Assembly: GCA_044222185.1 (NCBI GenBank)
Contig: JBGANV010000008.1
Coordinates: forward strand, 128,001 to 192,000
From: Planctomycetota bacterium
GTDB lineage: Bacteria; Planctomycetota; GCA-002687715; CAIWVZ01
Length of the DNA: 64,000 nucleotides
Reading direction: 5' to 3'
Shown: positions 15,450 through 24,430 of the stretch, one piece after another
Numbering within the stretch: the stretch's first letter is position 1
Layout of the letters: each line of letters starts with the position of its first letter
Program-made: the position numbers and the translations under genes
The notes under the pieces: generated by a model
What the model was told of the DNA's origin: nothing
Seen by the model: only the letters and a program-made list of their open reading frames with translations
The model's database searches: none

Positions 15450-17297
15450 ATGCTCGTGTCCCCGCCCTCGAATGAAGCACCGGCGAGTGAAGCGCAGCCC
15501 GCGCCCGATCACGCGATCGTGGGCGGACCGACCCTCGCGCTGTTGATCACGGTCCTGTTCGTCGTCGGCTGGGTGTTGCCCTCGGCGCTCCTGAACCTCG
15601 TCAACCCGGACGAGGGCCGATACACGGAGATCTCCCGGGAAATGGCCGCGACGGGCGACTGGCTCGTTCCGCGACTGCACGGAGTGCCCCACTGGGCGAA
15701 GCCGCCCCTCACCTATTGGGCGTGCGGGCTGAGCCAGCGCATCCTCGGTCCGACCCACCTCGCGACGCGGCTTCCGTCGGTCTTCGCCTCGCTTCTCGTC
15801 ATCGTGACGATGGCCCTGCTCGGGCGACGGATGTCCGGCCCGCGCGTCGGGTGGTGCGCCGCGATCATCCTGGCTTCGATCGGTCACTTCTTCGCCGTCG
15901 GTCATTCGATCACGACCGACATGCTCACCTGCCTCTGCACGACGTCAGCGCTCGCCGCATGGTGGGCCGGCTACCGAGCAGCGCCGGGGAGCGACGCGCC
16001 GTCGCCGCACCGGTTCGCCTGGAACCTCCTCGCGTTCCTCGCCCTCGGCGTCGGCTTTCTTGCAAAAGGCCCGGTCTCGCTCGCCTTGTTCTTCGCGACC
16101 ATCGGGGCGTTCGGTCTCCTGCGAAGGGACTTCCGCCTGGTACCGCTCGGTCACCTCGCGCTCGGGATCGCTCTGGTGCTCGCCATCGGCTTGCCCTGGT
16201 TCTTCGCGGTCGCGAATCGAAACCCCGATCTCTTCGACTTCTTCCTCTTGCGGGAGGTGCGCGACCGCTATCTGACGGAGCGACATGGACGGGGGAAGCC
16301 GTTCTGGTTCTGCACCGCGGTCTTCCTCGCGGGGCTGGCTCCGTGGACGCCGCTTTTCGTGGCGACGTTCTGGGCCCGCGTCCGATCCCTGGGACGCGCC
16401 CTCGTGTCGCGCATGGCACCAGCCGATGTCGCGTGTGAGCAGTTCCTCCTCGCCTGGACGCTTGGCCCGCTCGTCTTCTTCTCCTTCTCGGGCTCGCAGC
16501 TTTGGACGTACGTGCTCCCGGTGTTTCCCCCGGCGGCACTGCTCCTCGCGCGCTGCGTCGCAAGGTTCGCCGGCCGACCGACCGAAGGCGCAGACCGCCA
16601 CGTTCGGGTTGCCGCGCGCATCACGTGCGGCCTCGCGATCGTGATGGCGATCGCGCCGACGATCTTCATGACGGCGTGGATGCACCGGGACTGGGCGCGC
16701 GGTGCGTCCTGCCTGGCGCCCGGTGCGCTGTGCGCCGTCGCGTGGTGGAGGATCGGCCGTCGGTCGAGATCGGCGGCCTCGCGCCTGTGGTTGCACGCTT
16801 CAGCGGTTCTGGCATTCATCGCCTATGCGGCGTTCGCGGCCCAGCTGCCGCTCGTTGAGGATGGCCTCGGCGATCGCGCGTCGTTCGCATGGGTGAGAGA
16901 CCACCTGCCCCCCGACATCTGCGGCGCGAAGATCCCTCTCACGCTGCATCCCGACGACAATCCGATGGAGTTTCCCGCCGGACGCCCCCGCCTCGTGACG
17001 TGGCGGATCACCCGCAATTCACTCAGCTTCTACACGCTGGGGCTGAAGCCCGAGGTCGTACGCTCGTTCGGCCAGGACACCATCTACGAGCTGCGCAAGG
17101 ACAAGGACGCGGACAAGCCTCCCGGCCTCGTGGAACTCCGTCGCGCCATCTCCCTCCCCGGCGATACCTACGCCGTGGTGCCCCGCGCGTACGTCCAGGA
17201 CCTCACGTCCGCCGGCTTGAGCATCGAACCCATCGCGTCACGCGGCGAGGGGAAACACGAGATCGCGCTCGTGCGACTCGGCACACAGCCGCGGTGA
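15450..17297 (+). CDS. ArnT/PMT-like integral-membrane glycosyltransferase (GT83/GT39 fold)
   Basis: PDEGRYTEISREM, GDWLVP, KPPLTYW, RLPS, LAKGP, and many TM segments. ATG directly follows the upstream TAG. Confidence 0.85.
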   Translation: MLVSPPSNEAPASEAQPAPDHAIVGGPTLALLITVLFVVGWVLPSALLNLVNPDEGRYTEISREMAATGDWLVPRLHGVPHWAKPPLTYWACGLSQRILGPTHLATRLPSVFASLLVIVTMALLGRRMSGPRVGWCAAIILASIGHFFAVGHSITTDMLTCLCTTSALAAWWAGYRAAPGSDAPSPHRFAWNLLAFLALGVGFLAKGPVSLALFFATIGAFGLLRRDFRLVPLGHLALGIALVLAIGLPWFFAVANRNPDLFDFFLLREVRDRYLTERHGRGKPFWFCTAVFLAGLAPWTPLFVATFWARVRSLGRALVSRMAPADVACEQFLLAWTLGPLVFFSFSGSQLWTYVLPVFPPAALLLARCVARFAGRPTEGADRHVRVAARITCGLAIVMAIAPTIFMTAWMHRDWARGASCLAPGALCAVAWWRIGRRSRSAASRLWLHASAVLAFIAYAAFAAQLPLVEDGLGDRASFAWVRDHLPPDICGAKIPLTLHPDDNPMEFPAGRPRLVTWRITRNSLSFYTLGLKPEVVRSFGQDTIYELRKDKDADKPPGLVELRRAISLPGDTYAVVPRAYVQDLTSAGLSIEPIASRGEGKHEIALVRLGTQPR

Positions 17298-17304
17298 GGT
17301 GAGT

Positions 17305-18381
17305 TCAGGCGTCGAAGAACGCCCGGAACCGCGGTGTGAGCCAGTCGAACTCCTTCAAGAACGCGTCGTGTCCGTAGATCGAGGACAGCACCTCGTACTT
17401 CACGTCCCGGCCGGCATCCTTCAGGACTTTGTAGACGAGCTCCTGCTCGTCGGGCGGCACGAGGGCGTCGCGATCGACGGCGATCACGTATCCGCGCGCC
17501 GTGATCTGGCGGATCCCCGCTTCGAGCGACGGGTGCCCGCGTCCCAGGTCAGTCAGATCCATGCACTTCGAAAGCAGCACGTAGCAATTGGCGTCGAAGC
17601 GCTCGGCGAAGCGCTCGCCTTGCGCCGCGAGGAACGACTCCACTTCGAACGTGACGTCGCCTGGCCGAAGGGGCCCGATCGGCGCATGGTCGAAGCGTTG
17701 GTTGAACTCGTCACGCGAGCGATAGAGGATCGTGCCGATCTCGCGCGCGAGCCTCAGGCCGAGCTTCGGACCGCGTCCCGGCTCGTAACGACCGGCGCGG
17801 TACTCGGGATCGTTGAAGATTGCGTGTCGCCCCAGCCGGCGCAGGGCCACGGTGTGCGGCATCGTTCGCGACGTCATGCTGAGCGCGATGAATCGATCCA
17901 CGAAGCGCGGGAACGCCGCGGCGAATTGAAGGACCTGCATCCCACCCAGGCTCGCGCCGGCGATCGCGTGGATCCGCTTGAGGCCGAGTGCGTCGAAGAG
18001 CGCCTTGTGAACCCGGGCCTGATCCAGCGGCGTGATCGGCGGGAAATCAGGCCCGAAAGGGCGCCCCGTTCGTGTATCGATGCTCAGAGGGCTCGTCGAT
18101 CCGTAGGGCGAACCCAGGATGCTCGCGCAGATGATGTGCCACCGATCCGTGTCGAACGCGCGGCCCGGGCCGACCATCTCCTCCCACCACCCCTCGCTCG
18201 AGTCGCTCGGACTGCTGCGAAGGTGGCTGTGCGCGGAGAGGGCTGGGAACACGGCGATGGTGTTTGCGCCGTCTCCCTGACGAGTGCCCCACTCCTCGTA
18301 CCGGATCCGAAGCTCGGGGATCGCCCCACCGAGTTCCAGTCGGAACGGTCCCGGCAGGTTGACGGATGCGGGGTTCGCCAT
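17305..18381 (-). CDS. metX: MetX-family homoserine/serine O-acyltransferase
   Basis: GWWEEMVGPG, GASLGGMQ nucleophile, RFDANCY, YGHDAFL catalytic His. Substrate is uncertain (see findings). Confidence 0.85.
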   Translation of the reverse strand: MANPASVNLPGPFRLELGGAIPELRIRYEEWGTRQGDGANTIAVFPALSAHSHLRSSPSDSSEGWWEEMVGPGRAFDTDRWHIICASILGSPYGSTSPLSIDTRTGRPFGPDFPPITPLDQARVHKALFDALGLKRIHAIAGASLGGMQVLQFAAAFPRFVDRFIALSMTSRTMPHTVALRRLGRHAIFNDPEYRAGRYEPGRGPKLGLRLAREIGTILYRSRDEFNQRFDHAPIGPLRPGDVTFEVESFLAAQGERFAERFDANCYVLLSKCMDLTDLGRGHPSLEAGIRQITARGYVIAVDRDALVPPDEQELVYKVLKDAGRDVKYEVLSSIYGHDAFLKEFDWLTPRFRAFFDA

Positions 18382-19049
18382 GGTCCGACGTGTTAACGCG
18401 AAGCGCGAGCGGGTCTCAACGCGGGCCGAGGACCAGGTTGACGCTGATTCCAGCGCCTCCGCGGCCGTGCGCCGCGCCTGCACCATGGCGACAGCGCCGC
18501 ATGGGCGATGCGCGTGCGCGTTGGAGTTCGCCGCGTCCCACGCGCCCGCGGCCTCGCCCGCGCGGGCCGTCCTGAGGACGAGTCAGCCGATGGACCGAGT
18601 GCCTCGCCGCCGACACGTGATCCGATCGCCTCGATGACGCTGAGGATTGGATGGGCCGACCGCGGGTTCGCGAAGTCGACCGCGGCCGGCATGATTCCTG
18701 AACGACCACCTTGCAGCACTTCGACGGTCCGAAGTGCCGGAACCGACGGAGGTGGCGATCACAGCGAAGTCATCGACGGCACCCGCGGAGGCGAACGCCC
18801 GACAGCGCGTGATTCGACGCCGTCCACGTGCGCGAATTCTCGTACCGAGGATTGTCAAGAGAAAACACGGTCTGGCCCGAGCCGGGGGGCTGGTTGTCTC
18901 GTCGGCGGTCCTGCGTACTCTTCCTGCCCTGGAGGTCTGGTCTGCGCATGTCTCGCATGATCTCGAGCCTCGTTCGACCTGTGACGACGAGCCTCCTTGT
19001 CAACCTCGAACCAGTTGTCCGCGGTGGGATCCCGCCCGAAACCAATCCC

Positions 19050-19586
19050 ATGACACCTCCAGCTCAAGCGCCCATGGACTCGACTGAAACACTCCACGCC
19101 TCCGCGGTCGACGCGAACTTCCTCACCACCATGGATGAGATCTGTGCAGGGACCGCGGTAGCAGTCCCCGAACTCATCGAGTCGGCCGACGAGGATGAAA
19201 CAGGCCTCGCCTTCGCGCGGATCACATCGCCCCTCGGCGCCCGCGCCCCGAAGAAGAAGGACGAAGAGGAAGACGACGACGCGGACGAGGATGCAGACGA
19301 GGAGTCGGACGACGAAGCGGGCGACGACGACGAAGCGGGCGACGACGAGGAAGAGGGCGTCGACGAAGAGGACGACGACTGGGACGAGGACGAGGAAGAA
19401 GAAGACGAAGACGACGACGAGGATGACGACGAAGACGAAGACCTCGACGACGATGACGATTGGGACGAGGACGACGAAGACGAAGACGAGGATGAGGACG
19501 AGGACGAAGACGACGACGAGGATGATGACGACGACGATGACGATGATGAGGAGGAGGACGACGAGGACGAGGACTGGGACGACTGA
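19050..19586 (+). CDS. Hypothetical protein with an extremely acidic Asp/Glu C-terminal tract (start uncertain)
   Basis: Open frame with ~108 codons almost all GAC/GAT/GAG/GAA. First and second codon positions are held while the third varies, as expected for coding DNA. Confidence 0.6.
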   Translation: MTPPAQAPMDSTETLHASAVDANFLTTMDEICAGTAVAVPELIESADEDETGLAFARITSPLGARAPKKKDEEEDDDADEDADEESDDEAGDDDEAGDDEEEGVDEEDDDWDEDEEEEDEDDDEDDDEDEDLDDDDDWDEDDEDEDEDEDEDEDDDEDDDDDDDDDEEEDDEDEDWDD

Positions 19587-19797
19587 GGTCGCCACCGTCA
19601 TGCCCGCCTCTCGCACCTGACCGACTTTCAGCGAGCGCCCGCGGCGCGCCGTGATGGAGCGCCGCCGCCTCAGCGCCCGCAGCGGGCAGCTCCAGCCCGT
19701 GCCTGGCTCCCCGCCTTGGTCGTCGTGATGACCCCGACGACCCGCCGGCAGCTCCCGCCGCCCCACCGACTGACGCCGTCGCGCCCCGCAAAATGAG

Positions 19798-19831
19798 CGA
19801 GGGCGCGAACCCGGCAGGGTTCACGCCCTCG
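19798..19831 (-). terminator. Probable intrinsic terminator of the putative selenoprotein gene
   Basis: CGAGGGCGCGAACCC-GGCA-GGGTTCACGCCCTCG stem, followed on the minus strand by CTCATTTT. Confidence 0.55.
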
Positions 19832-19869: not shown

Positions 19870-20760
19870 TCACTTGCCCGAGGTCGCTCGAGGCGCCGGC
19901 GCGGCGACCGGTGTGGCCTTCACCGCGGGAGTCAGCAACTGCTTCTCCTCCGAGAGGAGCTTCGTCTTCTCGGTCTTGGCCGTGGTGAGATCCGTCTCGG
20001 TTTCCTTGATGGCCCTTCGGCCATTCTCGCAGTCGTGCTTCGCGACGTGGTCCTTGTGCTCCTGAAGCTCGGTCTCCAGGTTCTCGACCGATGCCGAGAC
20101 CTTGTCCAGCTTCTTCAGGAACGAGGAGTAGCGACTCACGAGGGTCGCGAGCGCATCACGGAACTGCGTCGCGGCGACCTGCTGCTGGGCGAGGAACACG
20201 GAGCTCGCGGTGATCCCGGAGCCCGCCAGGCGCGTCACCTCGTTGCCCTTCGAATCGAGGAAGATCACCGCGGGCACCGTCTTCGCGTATTGCTCGCGCG
20301 CGGCGTTGTCCCGGATGTCCTCGACGTAGACCTTGGCGTTGTTGAACCACCGCGAAGCGATGATGACGTTGTCGTCGTCGAACATGCGCTTCTCCGCCTT
20401 GGGATCGGGGGTGAGGCTGAGGAACCACACCATCCCAGGGCGAACGGCAGCCTTGCCCATGATCTCGGCGAACTCGCCGTCGAAAATCGCGTGGAGAGGC
20501 GCGGTCGCGCCGCTATACCCCGCGCGCTCGACGGTGATGAGGTGCTTCGTTTCCCACTCGATCGCAAGACGCTCCGCAGCAACGCTGCTCATCGTCTTGC
20601 CGGCGGCACCGCTCGCCGGTCCGCCCCCCGCACTGCGCGACCCACCCGGGGCCGCTTTGCGTGCGCCTCAATGTGCGCACTGCGCGTTCATCGTCGAGGC
20701 GACGACCGCCAGGAGCAGCGGTACGATCGCCAGGCCGATCCTGGCTCGTGACAGTTTCAT
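19870..20760 (-). CDS. Putative exported selenoprotein (CxxU) with thioredoxin-like domain and C-terminal coiled coil; UGA at 20668-20670 read as Sec
   Basis: Strong RBS GGAGGAG before ATG 20760; signal peptide; ...MNAQCAH-TGA-GARK... is in frame with ORF 19870-20592; hairpin right after the UGA; Trx-type VPAVIFLDSKGNEVTRLAG. Confidence 0.75.
20629..20665 (-). promoter_or_regulatory. Candidate bacterial SECIS element
   Basis: mRNA UGA GG CGCACGC AAA GCGGCCC CGGGU GGGUCGC GC A GUGCG: two-stem hairpin with a G-rich apical loop starting 19 nt after the UGA. Confidence 0.6.
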
Positions 20761-20910
20761 GGATCTCCTCCGAGGTTGTCGTCCGCGCGAACCCGAGCAG
20801 TTCTCACGCGCACGTCGTTCGAAAGGCGCACCGAAGCATTGGGTTGAGGCCGTAGCATACAGTTCAGTCGACACTCAGGCCACCGGACTTTTGCCGGTTC
20901 CCATCAGAAG

Positions 20911-21837
20911 TCACCCCGCGTGCGTGAACGCGAGAAGCCCCGCCCCCGCGACACCGGCTCGGTTGCCGAGCTTCGCCCGGACGATCCGGACGCCTTTGTG
21001 CACGAACTCGAGCGAATGCGCACGAAACGCGTCCGCGACAGGCCTCAGCAACAGGGGGCCGAGGACGCTGATCCCGCCGCCAACGACCACGATCTCCGGC
21101 GCGATCACCGAGGCGATGGAAGCGAGTCCGATCCCCAGGTTCCGCCCAACCTGTCCGACGACCCGCAGAGCTCGCTCCTCGCCCGCCCGGGCCCGCTCGA
21201 TGATCAACCGAACCTCGATCTCACTCTCCCCGCCCGCTTCCCGGTAGTACCGCCGCAAGGCGTGGGTTGCGGTGTATTGCTCGAGACATCCCCGCGCGCC
21301 GCAGCCGCAGGGCTCGCCATCGGGCTGAAAGATCGCGTGGCCGATCTCCCCGCCGGTGCCGTAGCGGCCGCGGACCAGGTGCCCCTCGACGACGACGCCG
21401 CCCCCGAGGCCGGTCCCGACCGTCGCCATCAGGACGTTCCGCACGCCCCGTGCGGAACCGATCATCGACTCGCCGAAACAGGCAACCGTTGCGTCGTTCT
21501 CCGCGACGACCGGCAATCCGGATTCCGCCCGCAGGAAGTCCGCGACCGCGAGACCCCGTGTACCCAGGAGGTTCGGTGACGCCGTCACCAGCAGGCCCCG
21601 GCGCCCGGTCACCGTGCCGGGAACCCCCACGCCCACGCCACGTGGCTTGTGCTTGTGTGCCCGCGCCGTGGCCCGAAGCCGCGCGATGGCGTCGCGGAAC
21701 GCACGCTTCACGCCGGCGCGCCCCTCGTGCGCGTTCGACGGGACTTCGTCCGCGTCGAGCACACGCCCCGCGCAGTCGACGATCCCAAACTTCAGCGCCG
21801 TGCCGCCGAGGTCGAGGCCAAATGCCACGTCTGTCAT
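20911..21837 (-). CDS. ROK family sugar kinase (glucokinase-like)
   Basis: GLDLGGT, ENDA, GTGLGGG, GEIGH, and zinc motif CGCGARGCLE. Confidence 0.92.
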   Translation of the reverse strand: MTDVAFGLDLGGTALKFGIVDCAGRVLDADEVPSNAHEGRAGVKRAFRDAIARLRATARAHKHKPRGVGVGVPGTVTGRRGLLVTASPNLLGTRGLAVADFLRAESGLPVVAENDATVACFGESMIGSARGVRNVLMATVGTGLGGGVVVEGHLVRGRYGTGGEIGHAIFQPDGEPCGCGARGCLEQYTATHALRRYYREAGGESEIEVRLIIERARAGEERALRVVGQVGRNLGIGLASIASVIAPEIVVVGGGISVLGPLLLRPVADAFRAHSLEFVHKGVRIVRAKLGNRAGVAGAGLLAFTHAG

Positions 21838-21865: not shown

Positions 21866-24430
21866 TCAGCCGTCCTTCATTCCGGGGCTCGCGCCCAGGA
21901 TGAAATTCCGGACCGGAGACAGCGGACGCAACCCGCCTGCATTCAGATCGAGGAAGGTTTCTGCACTCTTCGGAACGGGCATCGTTCCGACCTTCGCCAG
22001 CTTGGCGCGGATCTCTTCCGCGCGGGCGTGCTCGCCCGTGGCGTCGAGCACCTCGAGAAGCTCGTCGATGGCCGGCTTCCAAAGCACGATCGGCGGCCCC
22101 GAACCCGGGTTCGGGTCGTCCTGCTCGGCACGTTCCTTCTCCTCACGACGGAGGTCCTGGTCCCTGCGGACGGCCTCCAAGAGGCGCGCCTTCGCTTCGT
22201 CCAGTCGTGCGGCCCTGCGCAGGATCTGCGCGGCAAGGACGCGCGGCATGATCTCGTCGTGCCACGTCGCGTCCTCACGTGACCACCAGGCTTTCAAGAG
22301 ACCCAGGGCATCGTCGACCTGGCCCCCTGCCGCACGAATCAACGCGAGTCGCCCGGTGAGACAGCGGGACGCGGGGTGCGACTTCGGTAATTCGCGGGCC
22401 ACACCGTCGAGGAGCGTGCGCGCGCGATCGATGTGCCCGGCCTTCTGCTCGACGACGCCCAGCAGGTAGCGCGCGCCGACGGCACGGGGCTGCGCGGTCA
22501 CGACGAACTCCAGGTCGCTTCGCGCCGCTTCCCACTGGCGGTCGATGAAGGAGAGTTCCGCCTGGATGAATCGCGCCGGCGCTTCCGTCTCGCCAGAGAG
22601 GCAGGCGCGCAAGTGCTCTCGCACTGCGGTGCGGCGCCGCATCTGGTTCTCGGACTGGAATTCGGCCGGGTCGTTCGACACGCACCCCCAGAGCATGACC
22701 GCAGCGACGATGTGATCGCGGGAGTCGCCGGCGACGACGCGGGGCTCCAGGCCGCCCGGCTTCATGAGGATCGCGTCGACCTCCTGCGGCGCGAGCGGCT
22801 GCTCGCGTGTTTCGTCCGTTGGAACCAGCGCCTGTCGCGATTCGTTGTCCGGGAACGCCATCTCGGCATCGGCGTGCGTGACCCCGGCACCGCGTTTCCC
22901 GCGCGTCCACACGTCGCGCAGCACGAGTGCGGCGAAACCGTCGCCGCTTCCGACCTCACCCAACGACGCGCGAGCGTCCCCTGGTCGGCCCGCGAGGTAG
23001 TTGACCCACGCGGCAAGGCGCCGCCGCTCGAGCGTCGCCGCGGGCGCGAGGTCATCGGACCCCAGCTCGAGCGTCAGCGCGCGCGGTGGGAGTCCAATGC
23101 CGTCGGCGAATGCCTCCGGCGGAAACCACGCGAAGGGGCGGAGCTCCGCTTCGATCGCCCGCGCCCGAAGCTCCGGCCGGATCTGGGTCGTGCCGATCCA
23201 CGCGGCGACCGCGAGGATCGCGACGAACAGAGCGGCCGCGACGAGGAGTCCGCGCTTGTGGCGGTGGAGCAGGCGAGACAACGGGCGAGCCCGTTTCAGC
23301 GTGATGCGGTCCGGAGATTCCCCGCGCGCCACGCGCTCCAGGTCACCCGCGAACGCCGCCATGTCGGCGTACCGCCGCAAGGGGTCGATCTCGATCGAGC
23401 GCAGGATCACCGCTTCGAGGTCCGGTGGGACTCGTGACTCCACCTTGCGTGGTGGCGTCGGGCCGAGAGACCGGATGTGGTCGAAGAGCTCGCCGCGCGT
23501 GCGCTGCGAGAACGCCTCCGTCCCCACGCAGAGCTCGTAGAGCGACAACCCCAGCCCGTAGATGTCCGTCCGGTTGGAGACGACGCTGTTTCCGCCCTCG
23601 ATCAGCTCCGGTGCCAGGTAGCGCGGTGTCCCCATCACCTGGTCGTCGGTGACCGTCAGTTCGGGAAGGTTGGGAGCCTGCGCAATCCCGAAATCGATGA
23701 TCATGGGCTCGCCCGTGCGGTCGACGAGCAGATTGGACGGCTTCACGTCCCGATGCAGGATGCCGAACCCGTGTATGGCAGCGAACGTTCGAGCGATCCG
23801 CGCGACGAAGCGGGCGCGCTCCTGCATTCCGTGAAGGCGATGGTCGGACTGCTTCACCGTCTCGCGCAGCTTCGCGACGGTCTCGCCCTCGACCCACTTC
23901 ATGGCGATCCAGAAGCGGCCGCGCTCCTCCCCCGAGTCGAGCACCGGTACGACGTTCACGAGGTCGAGCTTGCGCAGCATGTCCGCTTCGCGCTTGAAGC
24001 GTTCGACGTCCCGCGCGTCGCCGGCGCCGCGCGCGTCCATCACCTTCAGCGCGACGATCTGACCGGAACCCGCGTGACGGGCCCGGTACACCGTGCCGCC
24101 TCCAGCCGTCGAGACATGCTCGAGACCGGTGTAGGGGCCGAGCCGAACCTCGTCGGGAGCACCGGTGGGCGCGACCTCCGTCGCCGTGATGCGCGCCGTA
24201 CGAATCGGTGTCGCGTCCGGTTCCTTCCGGGTCGGAGGCGGCACGGTGTCCCAGGCGAGAATCCGCGCCAGCTCCTCGGCGTACTTCGGATAGCGCGCGA
24301 GGTACTCGTCGAGGCTCGGGTTCAGGCCCTCCTCACGCTTGAGGATGAAGTCCGCCGCCACGTCCTCGACCGGAGGAAGGCGGCCGCCCGTCGTCACTCC
24401 GAACGGGTCGTCGTCAGGAACGGCCGGCAT
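21866..24430 (-). CDS. Membrane Ser/Thr protein kinase with C-terminal TPR-like region
   Basis: VALKVM, RFKRE, HRDVKPSN, DFG, GTPRYLAPE, DIYGLG, a TM helix, then helical repeats. Confidence 0.92.
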   Translation of the reverse strand: MPAVPDDDPFGVTTGGRLPPVEDVAADFILKREEGLNPSLDEYLARYPKYAEELARILAWDTVPPPTRKEPDATPIRTARITATEVAPTGAPDEVRLGPYTGLEHVSTAGGGTVYRARHAGSGQIVALKVMDARGAGDARDVERFKREADMLRKLDLVNVVPVLDSGEERGRFWIAMKWVEGETVAKLRETVKQSDHRLHGMQERARFVARIARTFAAIHGFGILHRDVKPSNLLVDRTGEPMIIDFGIAQAPNLPELTVTDDQVMGTPRYLAPELIEGGNSVVSNRTDIYGLGLSLYELCVGTEAFSQRTRGELFDHIRSLGPTPPRKVESRVPPDLEAVILRSIEIDPLRRYADMAAFAGDLERVARGESPDRITLKRARPLSRLLHRHKRGLLVAAALFVAILAVAAWIGTTQIRPELRARAIEAELRPFAWFPPEAFADGIGLPPRALTLELGSDDLAPAATLERRRLAAWVNYLAGRPGDARASLGEVGSGDGFAALVLRDVWTRGKRGAGVTHADAEMAFPDNESRQALVPTDETREQPLAPQEVDAILMKPGGLEPRVVAGDSRDHIVAAVMLWGCVSNDPAEFQSENQMRRRTAVREHLRACLSGETEAPARFIQAELSFIDRQWEAARSDLEFVVTAQPRAVGARYLLGVVEQKAGHIDRARTLLDGVARELPKSHPASRCLTGRLALIRAAGGQVDDALGLLKAWWSREDATWHDEIMPRVLAAQILRRAARLDEAKARLLEAVRRDQDLRREEKERAEQDDPNPGSGPPIVLWKPAIDELLEVLDATGEHARAEEIRAKLAKVGTMPVPKSAETFLDLNAGGLRPLSPVRNFILGASPGMKDG

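Follow-up and report, generated by a model that had tools for sequence, protein, structure and literature searches.

We examined a 64,000-nucleotide stretch of DNA from a Planctomycetota bacterium (contig JBGANV010000008.1 of assembly GCA_044222185.1, positions 128,001 to 192,000; hereafter the window) and focused on a minus-strand gene at 19870-20760, which the original prediction had put forward as a member of a new family of exported selenoproteins. Gene calling gives a protein that starts at ATG 20592 (MSSVAAE...) and ends at the stop at 19870-19872. Reading through an upstream in-frame TGA extends the frame to 296 codons (to 19873) plus the terminal TGA, and takes in this 240-amino-acid open reading frame (ORF, 19870-20592). 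Direct reading and translation bore out the layout that had been proposed, in which a strong ribosome-binding site and ATG 20760 lead into a signal peptide, Q-C-A-H precedes a TGA at codon 31, and the frame stays open through a Gly/Ala-rich linker into the ORF (Table 1). The predicted signal peptidase I cut site was placed by the small residues at -3 and -1 that are the rule for this enzyme. GGAG- or GGAGG-like ribosome-binding sites also precede the ATG of most orthologues, and a comparable signal peptide stands at the start of all 20 orthologues listed. Comparison with these relatives suggests that the gene very probably encodes a single exported selenoprotein of 296 residues, rather than a 30-codon leader and a separate protein of 240 amino acids, and UGA codon 31 is very likely decoded as selenocysteine (Sec, U).

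Table 1. Features of the gene under study, followed by its neighbors, in window coordinates.
Feature	Position	Strand	Remarks
Shine-Dalgarno-like GGAGGAG	20765..20771	-	5 nt ahead of ATG 20758-20760; read directly
Signal peptide, codons 1-26, MKLSRARIGLAIVPLLLAVVASTMNA	20683..20760	-	K/R n-region, hydrophobic core, M-N-A before the predicted cut
Mature head Q27-C28-A29-H30-U31	20668..20682	-	TGA is codon 31, 20668-20670
SECIS-like hairpin	20629..20665	-	core stem GCGGCCC/GGGUCGC, loop CGGGU, 20637-20655
Gly/Ala/Arg/Ser-rich flexible linker, codons 32-56	20593..20667	-	contains the hairpin at the RNA level
Thioredoxin-fold domain, DsbD-gamma / Thioredoxin_7 type, without CxxC	20164..20586	-	structure model and profile matches
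cis-Pro column, P163	20272-20274	-	within the thioredoxin-fold domain
Asn141	20338-20340	-	replaces the Cys found there in most of the family
Antiparallel two-helix hairpin (coiled coil), mature residues 178-249	19936..20151	-	model secondary structure
Cys244 (KHDCENG)	20029-20031	-	inside the two-helix hairpin
Pro/Ala-rich C-terminal tail and terminal TGA stop (19870-19872)	19870..19935	-	translation
PMT-type glycosyltransferase	15450-17297	+	neighbor
alpha/beta hydrolase	17305-18486	-	neighbor
ROK-family kinase	20911-21837	-	E 5e-63; adjoins the family gene in 5 other loci too
Ser/Thr protein kinase with TPR tail	21866-24430	-	neighbor

Relatives were collected with a six-frame search that read through stops, which gave a match in 26 of 61 relatives, and with a profile of 17 full-length sequences, which matched in 22 of the order's 23 genomes. 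Among the 24 matches with E <= 2.2e-65 in these 23 genomes, all but one (23 of 24) carried an in-frame TGA, and 21 genomes of the order besides that of the gene under study had orthologues with TGA at its Sec column. When read in frame, all 24 strong orthologues displayed a signal peptide, an invariant Gln and then a head of Cys or Sec residues. The head was Q-C-U in 11 of them, usually followed by Gly, and Q-U-U in six that belong to three taxonomic families. Q-G-U and Q-U alone were found twice each, the neighboring Cys being replaced by Gly in the former and absent in the latter, whereas Q-U-C, the Q-C-A-H-U of the gene under study and a Q-C head without TGA (L029/P0008) each occurred once. 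The family typically has a vicinal pair, C-U or U-U; the C-x-x-U spacing of the gene under study results from a 6-nt insertion, GCACAT. The C-x-x-U motif that had been regarded as a hallmark is therefore present in this gene but peculiar to it, and is not a feature of the family.

Outside the order, at least 63 of 401 sampled Planctomycetota genomes contained a match at E <= 1e-15; the filter used there was stricter, which makes this number a minimum. In all nine of the loci that we read there, Sec stood directly behind the signal peptide, in the heads A-G-U-C (four loci) and G-U-GGGG-C, G-U-GGGR-C or G-U-GGR-C (five loci). The count of in-frame stops outside the order is too low, since three of these nine loci matched only from just after the TGA. 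The original prediction had looked for a TGA conserved at this column, and such conservation was observed both within the order (23 of 24) and beyond it (nine of nine). It had also considered that homologues might start at MSSVAAE with no conservation upstream, or carry Trp, Arg or Gly at the TGA column; instead, the upstream signal peptide and invariant Gln are shared, and the loci read have only TGA or Cys at that column.

Some further arrangements were noted during this survey. A few matches elsewhere in the phylum carry an internal TAA or TAG besides or instead of TGA (G102:C7:31594-32379, G107:C123:1804-2667 and G343:C113:11024-11725), and these may be pseudogenes or adjacent tandem copies. 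In several other lineages, tandem pairs of TGA-containing family genes on the same strand were found, at G046:C5:178514-180407, G054:C6:660923-662516, G332:C418:1291-3001 and G182:C1:455029-456675.

Homologues with Cys at the Sec position, which had been named as another source of support, were also recovered (L029/P0008, P0076, P0097, P0101 and L061). Uninterrupted full-length ORFs with Cys in place of Sec begin their mature part with QCASY (P0008), QCKCG (P0097), QCGGGCC (P0101) or QCPSY. P0076, with G-C-GGGG-C, is an exact Cys twin of the G-U-GGGG-C of L071 and L073, and in a paralogue clade GPVCQPSM (L061) pairs with PPGUPPSM (L060). Some members have neither Cys nor Sec in the head, which reads QRGGRGG. 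In the clade of L060 (G008:C184) and L061 (G018:C212), the Sec or Cys lies further into a Ser/Gly-rich linker, and the thioredoxin domain holds a Cys/His-rich insert (CFDPYC..LHCKH.HCK.P.C); this clade possibly forms a selenoprotein subfamily of its own that has a metal site.

A search of a library of 1.84 billion representatives retrieved 878 relatives at E <= 1e-3, of which 328 reached 1e-10 and 65 reached 1e-30. A signal-peptide-like start was absent from 120 of the best 150, which are mostly 200-250 amino acids long and begin at profile positions 50-65; the call relied on a crude hydrophobic-stretch rule, and of its 30 positives three were internal fragments by eye. Such short calls fit truncation after a hidden TGA, and contig ends may also contribute. 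The close relatives P0002-P0006 are truncated proteins of 240-244 amino acids and were the only five found by protein homology search; the source name of one close relative, "paraquat-inducible protein B", was taken as a mislabel. A search for related loci with the single protein returned nothing, and the same search with profile A2 returned five named Planctomycetota and two metagenome contigs, mostly duplicates of known loci. The named relatives are metagenome-assembled Planctomycetota. As judged from these sequences, the gene very probably belongs to a large, unnamed Planctomycetota family that gene callers routinely cut short.

The database calls can also be taken at face value, with the TGA as a true stop, the first 30 codons as a mere leader and a cytoplasmic thioredoxin-like protein starting at ATG 20592. 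Most database members are called in this way (P0002-P0006 and the 120 representatives above), TGA terminates 17 of 20 genes and is the commonest stop in these genomes, and the hairpin described below is no better than shuffled sequences. However, in all 32 Sec-type loci read, leader and body lie in one frame, and the internal stop between them is always TGA, never TAA or TAG, including in seven genes that themselves terminate with TAA or TAG. The Cys relatives join signal peptide, head, linker and domain in a single uninterrupted ORF. Furthermore, several orthologues have no ATG between the TGA and the conserved domain; the first Met comes after the invariant Trp in L026 and inside RMEIAW in L017. 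Linker motifs upstream of the called starts (GGAGRV, TRSPEVAR) are conserved and fold onto the domain, and the model of L027 exceeds a predicted local distance difference test (pLDDT) score of 95 from mature residue 21 onward. With the full Sec machinery present in the genome as well, we regard a true stop as highly improbable.

The components required for Sec insertion, whose presence had been proposed as a check, were all detected above curated cut-offs. A tRNA-Sec scored 74.7 bits (gathering score 47) and was called SeC(tca) by ARAGORN; selA scored 487 bits (cut-off 268), selB 330 bits (cut-off 242) and selD 371 bits (cut-off 125). The tRNA-Sec gene follows selA at a distance of about 80 nt and in the same orientation (G000:C1:1631186-1632718; L001, L011), and selB lies apart on the same contig (C1:529551-531440). 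selA was present in all 23 genomes of the order. The selD gene (G000:C14:427704-428624, L012) itself carries an in-frame TGA (GGGUACKIG), and its RNA has a GGCGCAG/CUGCGCC stem, similar to the hairpins of the family, whose GUC loop comes about 33 nt past the UGA. This hairpin provides a local reference for what the SelB of this organism may recognize.

The assembly consists of 16 contigs, is 93.8% complete and is probably a metagenome-assembled genome, which is the only point found in favor of the view that the TGA is a sequencing or assembly error, or marks a recent pseudogene in this genome. However, a DNA contig from an independent run (X3 record 5) that covers 20384-20847 differs at a single position, 20611, and is identical at the TGA, and the TGA column is shared with the 21 other genomes of the order and with other lineages. 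An error or recent pseudogene is therefore extremely improbable, and the concern that reads might reveal a sequencing error at the TGA was not borne out. Strains vary at two positions (20611 G>A and 20710 C>A), each time at the third base of a read-through codon and without a change of amino acid, although two cases make this evidence anecdotal. Contigs from RNA libraries, which may hold DNA, flank the TGA (X4 at 19983-20644 and 20695-20845; X17 at 20679-20829); 20645-20678 is covered by an RNA contig of no run and none bridges the TGA, and they therefore show neither read-through nor its absence.

The RNA around the UGA can form two hairpins, one with the UGA in its loop and a second, GCGGCCC-CGGGU-GGGUCGC, that starts 13 nt after the UGA and whose loop begins 19 nt after it. 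In 19 of 19 loci, a GC-rich hairpin was present whose loop started 15-36 nt past the last UGA; loops of GGU, GUC or CGUGC were frequent. Among 11 windows per gene, the best hairpin fell in the post-UGA window in 12 of 18 genes (mean -19.7 vs -11.6 kcal/mol). The loop started at 14-28 nt in 23 of 32 sequences, compared with 48% of shuffles, an enrichment that is overstated because the sequences are related; Levene's test on the loop positions was not significant (p 0.22). Two clear compensatory switches were seen by eye in one clade, where L018 and L019 have GUGCU-AGCAC and L020 has CCGCU-AGCGG, and a further one between L022 and L057; the encoded peptides differ in these cases. A GGCGC-NGGN-CGCGTC hairpin of one clade was at first taken as a selenocysteine insertion sequence (SECIS) and was dropped because the encoded GAGRV is also conserved in Sec-less relatives.

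Several observations count against the reading of codon 31 as Sec. The advantage of the post-UGA window is confounded by the G+C content of the linker (0.62-0.83 vs 0.50-0.70). Against dinucleotide shuffles, hairpin energies gave a mean z of only -0.6, with no more than 2 of 40 shuffles as good in just three of 22 sequences; for the gene under study, two comparisons yielded z -1.1, with 34 of 200 shuffles equalling the hairpin, and z -0.22, with 15 of 40. Since the energies find no support against shuffles, we set them aside as evidence. An Rfam search of 20500-20800 at E <= 10 returned no match, the linkers of Cys-only relatives are also Gly/Pro-rich, and the sequences counted throughout are relatives rather than independent draws. 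In the tandem UGA-UGA members, moreover, one SECIS is assumed to serve both codons. The hairpin that the original prediction placed right after the UGA is thus present but folds no better than shuffled sequences; it is SECIS-like, which is compatible with a SECIS without proving one. The case for Sec rests on the comparative evidence.

AlphaFold models of the gene product (pLDDT 89.0, predicted template modeling score (pTM) 0.80) and of a typical Q-C-U member (pLDDT 92.6, pTM 0.85) both comprise a disordered head and first 7-30 residues, then a thioredoxin fold and then a long antiparallel helical hairpin. In the model of the gene product, pLDDT averages about 50-57 across mature residues 1-30, and toward the C-terminal end it drops to 82-89. 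The domain resembles DsbD-gamma and Thioredoxin_7 structures: VIA retrieved 1vrs_D (Z 11.5, root-mean-square deviation 2.8, 110 of 118 residues aligned), Foldseek retrieved 4ip1 (E 2.6e-5), and the family profile matched 2kuc_A, of the Thioredoxin_7 type, in the PDB (E 1e-5). Neither Foldseek nor VIA found a structure that joins a thioredoxin domain to the helical hairpin, and matches to the hairpin were generic. Structure prediction thus returned a DsbD-gamma-like thioredoxin fold with a disordered Sec-bearing arm.

Models and alignment agree with the proposal that the thioredoxin-like fold lacks CxxC at the usual site. No Cys occupies that site in any of the 17 aligned sequences (A1), and the gene product has L-T-P-D-P-K there, while the cis-Pro column holds Pro in 138 of 145 sequences. 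The lone Cys noted earlier in the coiled coil (KHDCENG) is residue 244, at a column with Cys in 23 of 145 sequences. The domain had further been described as Cys-less, which is true of the gene product but not of the family, whose domain usually has a Cys in the "SRFFNC" motif at the start of the next strand (16 of 17 sequences in A1, 92 of 145 in A3). The gene product is therefore atypical twice, with C-x-x-U instead of C-U and without the domain Cys. With these two corrections, to the C-x-x-U hallmark and to the Cys-less domain, the original interpretation stands, and the gene is a well-supported candidate selenoprotein.

These observations suggest how the protein could be made and could act. 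The SelA/SelB/tRNA-Sec/SelD system would read UGA codon 31 as Sec, aided by the GC-rich hairpin in the linker-coding RNA just downstream. With the UGA right behind the signal peptide, failed insertion would yield merely a harmless signal peptide. Signal peptidase cleavage would leave Gln as residue 1 of a mature chain that starts Q-C-A-H-U, thereby placing the Cys/Sec pair on a disordered arm of about 30 residues, tethered to a DsbD-gamma-like fold that has lost its CxxC and to the helical hairpin. The pair could then cycle between selenolate/thiolate and selenenylsulfide, or diselenide in the U-U relatives. Its exchange partners would be substrates in the periplasm or outside the cell, bound to the surface of the thioredoxin fold near the cis-Pro loop, in a manner similar to the C-terminal Gly-Cys-Sec-Gly arm of animal thioredoxin reductase. 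We consider it moderately likely that this whole explanation, an exported Sec protein whose arm of Cys and Sec is a redox reactive center, is correct; that the arm acts in redox exchange rather than in metal binding has, in our view, a chance just short of even.

The redox part has weak points of its own. The mechanism is argued purely from analogy. In orthologues with the Q-G-U and Q-U heads, a single Sec stands without a Cys close by, and in the gene product Asn141 stands at the "SRFFNC" column, leaving it without a candidate partner Cys in the domain. Across the families of the order, gene neighborhoods showed no conserved neighbor and gave no functional hint; a ROK kinase, an M14 peptidase, a GAF-HTH regulator, a TonB plug and an amidohydrolase occur next to the gene in different families.

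Alternatively, the head of the same selenoprotein could be a hook for soft metals or metalloids (Cu, Ni, Hg, selenium or arsenic species) on a flexible tether. In that case the protein would not be an oxidoreductase but would serve in the periplasm as a chaperone, scavenger or sensor of metals. Cys-only relatives have Cys/His-rich heads (P0101 QCGGGCCKPGGGCH, P0097 QCKCGREHKDGKGH, P0076 GCGGGGC), and there are His-first branches, among them three paralogues in the same genome (L080-L082). In the gene product His30 lies between Cys and Sec, in most members Sec occupies mature position 2-3 beside the free amino terminus, and the thioredoxin domain has lost its CxxC. Against this, no metal-related neighbor genes are conserved, and members headed by QRGGRGG have no ligand residue at all, so that the head is not universally a metal site. 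An N-terminal Gln can also cyclize, which would remove the free amine. In favor of a metal site, 10.1101/2022.07.06.499078 argues that the CU motifs of several bacterial selenoproteins bind a mercury-like metal; against it, redox proteins make up the majority of the known bacterial selenoproteins that have a thioredoxin-like fold (PMC13188914). We regard both the metal hook and the chaperone, scavenger or sensor role as possible rather than probable.

The three distant paralogues of the same genome (L080, G000:C14:323826-324533; L081, C16:125949-126494; L082, C14:369841-370374) have a signal peptide that ends in A-H-G-[FW], and the mature protein would begin with His; their N-terminus is without Sec. 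Their linker is rich in Gly and Pro, the FFxC cysteine is retained, and the C-terminal helical part carries a CPDCGHER motif. His-first mature chains were also found in P0025, P0046, P0049, P0051 and P0061. A tentative lead comes from P0115, whose mature chain begins with A-H-C-D, much as the nickel hook of Ni-superoxide dismutase would begin.

In the window, the gene lies among a PMT-type glycosyltransferase, an alpha/beta hydrolase, a ROK kinase and a Ser/Thr kinase (Table 1), none with an evident link to a selenoprotein. The plus-strand ORF at 18828-19586 would encode 252 amino acids, of which the last 130 or so are almost only Asp and Glu, and has no Pfam match; long ORFs on the opposite strand (18855-19766 and 19222-19824) overlap it.

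The original prediction had not recognized this architecture among known bacterial selenoproteins, and we found no counterpart in Pfam, in NCBIfam or in Table 1 of PMC13188914. In Pfam the gene product stayed below thresholds, PF13098 (Thioredoxin_2) scoring 14.9-15.9 bits against a cut-off of 27, and none of 17 members matched a thioredoxin family at E <= 0.01. The selenoprotein models of NCBIfam release 20.0 (SaoC, KCU-star, MbdU, Trx7/PDZ, TsoB and others) gave no match; the best for the gene product was TsoB (E 0.048; 11.7 bits, cut-off 805), and the 17 members gave coiled-coil noise only. In the ESM Atlas the nearest entries were unnamed Planctomycetota clusters (0.96 and 0.93), followed by Thioredoxin_2 and Thioredoxin_7 clusters (0.82-0.85). 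Table 1 of PMC13188914, a review of May 2026, covers 119 families of prokaryotic selenoproteins, none of which has this architecture in that table, although members could be listed in the supplementary Table S9 of PMC4807772, cited for its candidate selenoproteins of two Planctomycetes, or in the supplementary Table S2 of PMC12013277. The string "Planctomyc" occurs nowhere in PMC13188914, PMC12013277 and PMC13326102 (the review, deep-Sep and BSepDB), and a literature search for adjacent Sec codons returned nothing relevant. Within the reach of the literature searches made, no published description of the family came up.

If read correctly, the gene adds to the bacterial selenoproteome a widespread family that current inventories and libraries of hidden Markov models have missed. 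The position of Sec would be unusual, on a free arm at the N-terminus of an exported protein and beside a thioredoxin fold that has lost its own active site. A more tentative generalization is a phylum-wide secreted "selenium hook", in which Sec, Cys-Sec or Sec-Sec within the first two or three mature residues would become exposed when the signal peptide is cleaved and would sit on a Gly-rich tether over a CxxC-less thioredoxin platform. If true, this would constitute a new type of active site for a selenoenzyme or metallochaperone, terminal, disordered and interchangeable with Cys- or His-headed paralogues. It would also be the first example from natural bacteria in which a single downstream hairpin serves two Sec codons in a row. 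The tandem Sec-Sec orthologues make it testable whether one bacterial SECIS serves two adjacent UGAs. A profile of the family would allow hundreds of truncated gene models to be corrected. Metagenomes from activated sludge and bioreactors contain the organism, and metaproteomes from such sources could be searched for the predicted N-terminal peptide.

Among known systems, the Trx, Grx, DsbA-like and PF13098 selenoproteins listed in PMC13188914 share the thioredoxin fold, and the gene product even shares their C-x-x-U spacing. In those proteins, however, Sec lies within the CxxC of the fold itself, whereas here that site is empty and Sec lies about 55 residues upstream on a disordered segment. 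The CU-motif selenoproteins (SAO system, HgcA, KCU-star and MbdU; 10.1101/2022.07.06.499078 and PMC13188914) resemble the Planctomycetota family in placing Cys-Sec in exported or metal-linked proteins and in being truncated at the TGA in databases. They differ in that CU lies at or near the C-terminus or inside the fold rather than behind the signal peptide. Furthermore, they occur in other organisms (anaerobic Firmicutes and others), and their NCBIfam models match none of the 17 family members.

The DsbD-gamma and Thioredoxin_7 proteins (1vrs_D, 4ip1, 2kuc_A and 3f9u_B) have in common with the family an exported thioredoxin fold and the cis-Pro loop. Unlike DsbD-gamma, the Sec family has no CxxC after the first central strand, carries an extra C-terminal helical hairpin, and has its Cys and Sec on a disordered N-terminal arm outside the fold. 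Animal thioredoxin reductase has a C-terminal Gly-Cys-Sec-Gly redox arm, and 11 of the 24 orthologues would likewise carry vicinal Cys-Sec on a flexible terminal arm beside a redox-type domain. Here, in contrast, the arm is N-terminal, the protein is bacterial and secreted and has no flavoprotein domain, and the gene product itself reads C-A-H-U; the likeness is thus one of design and not of homology.

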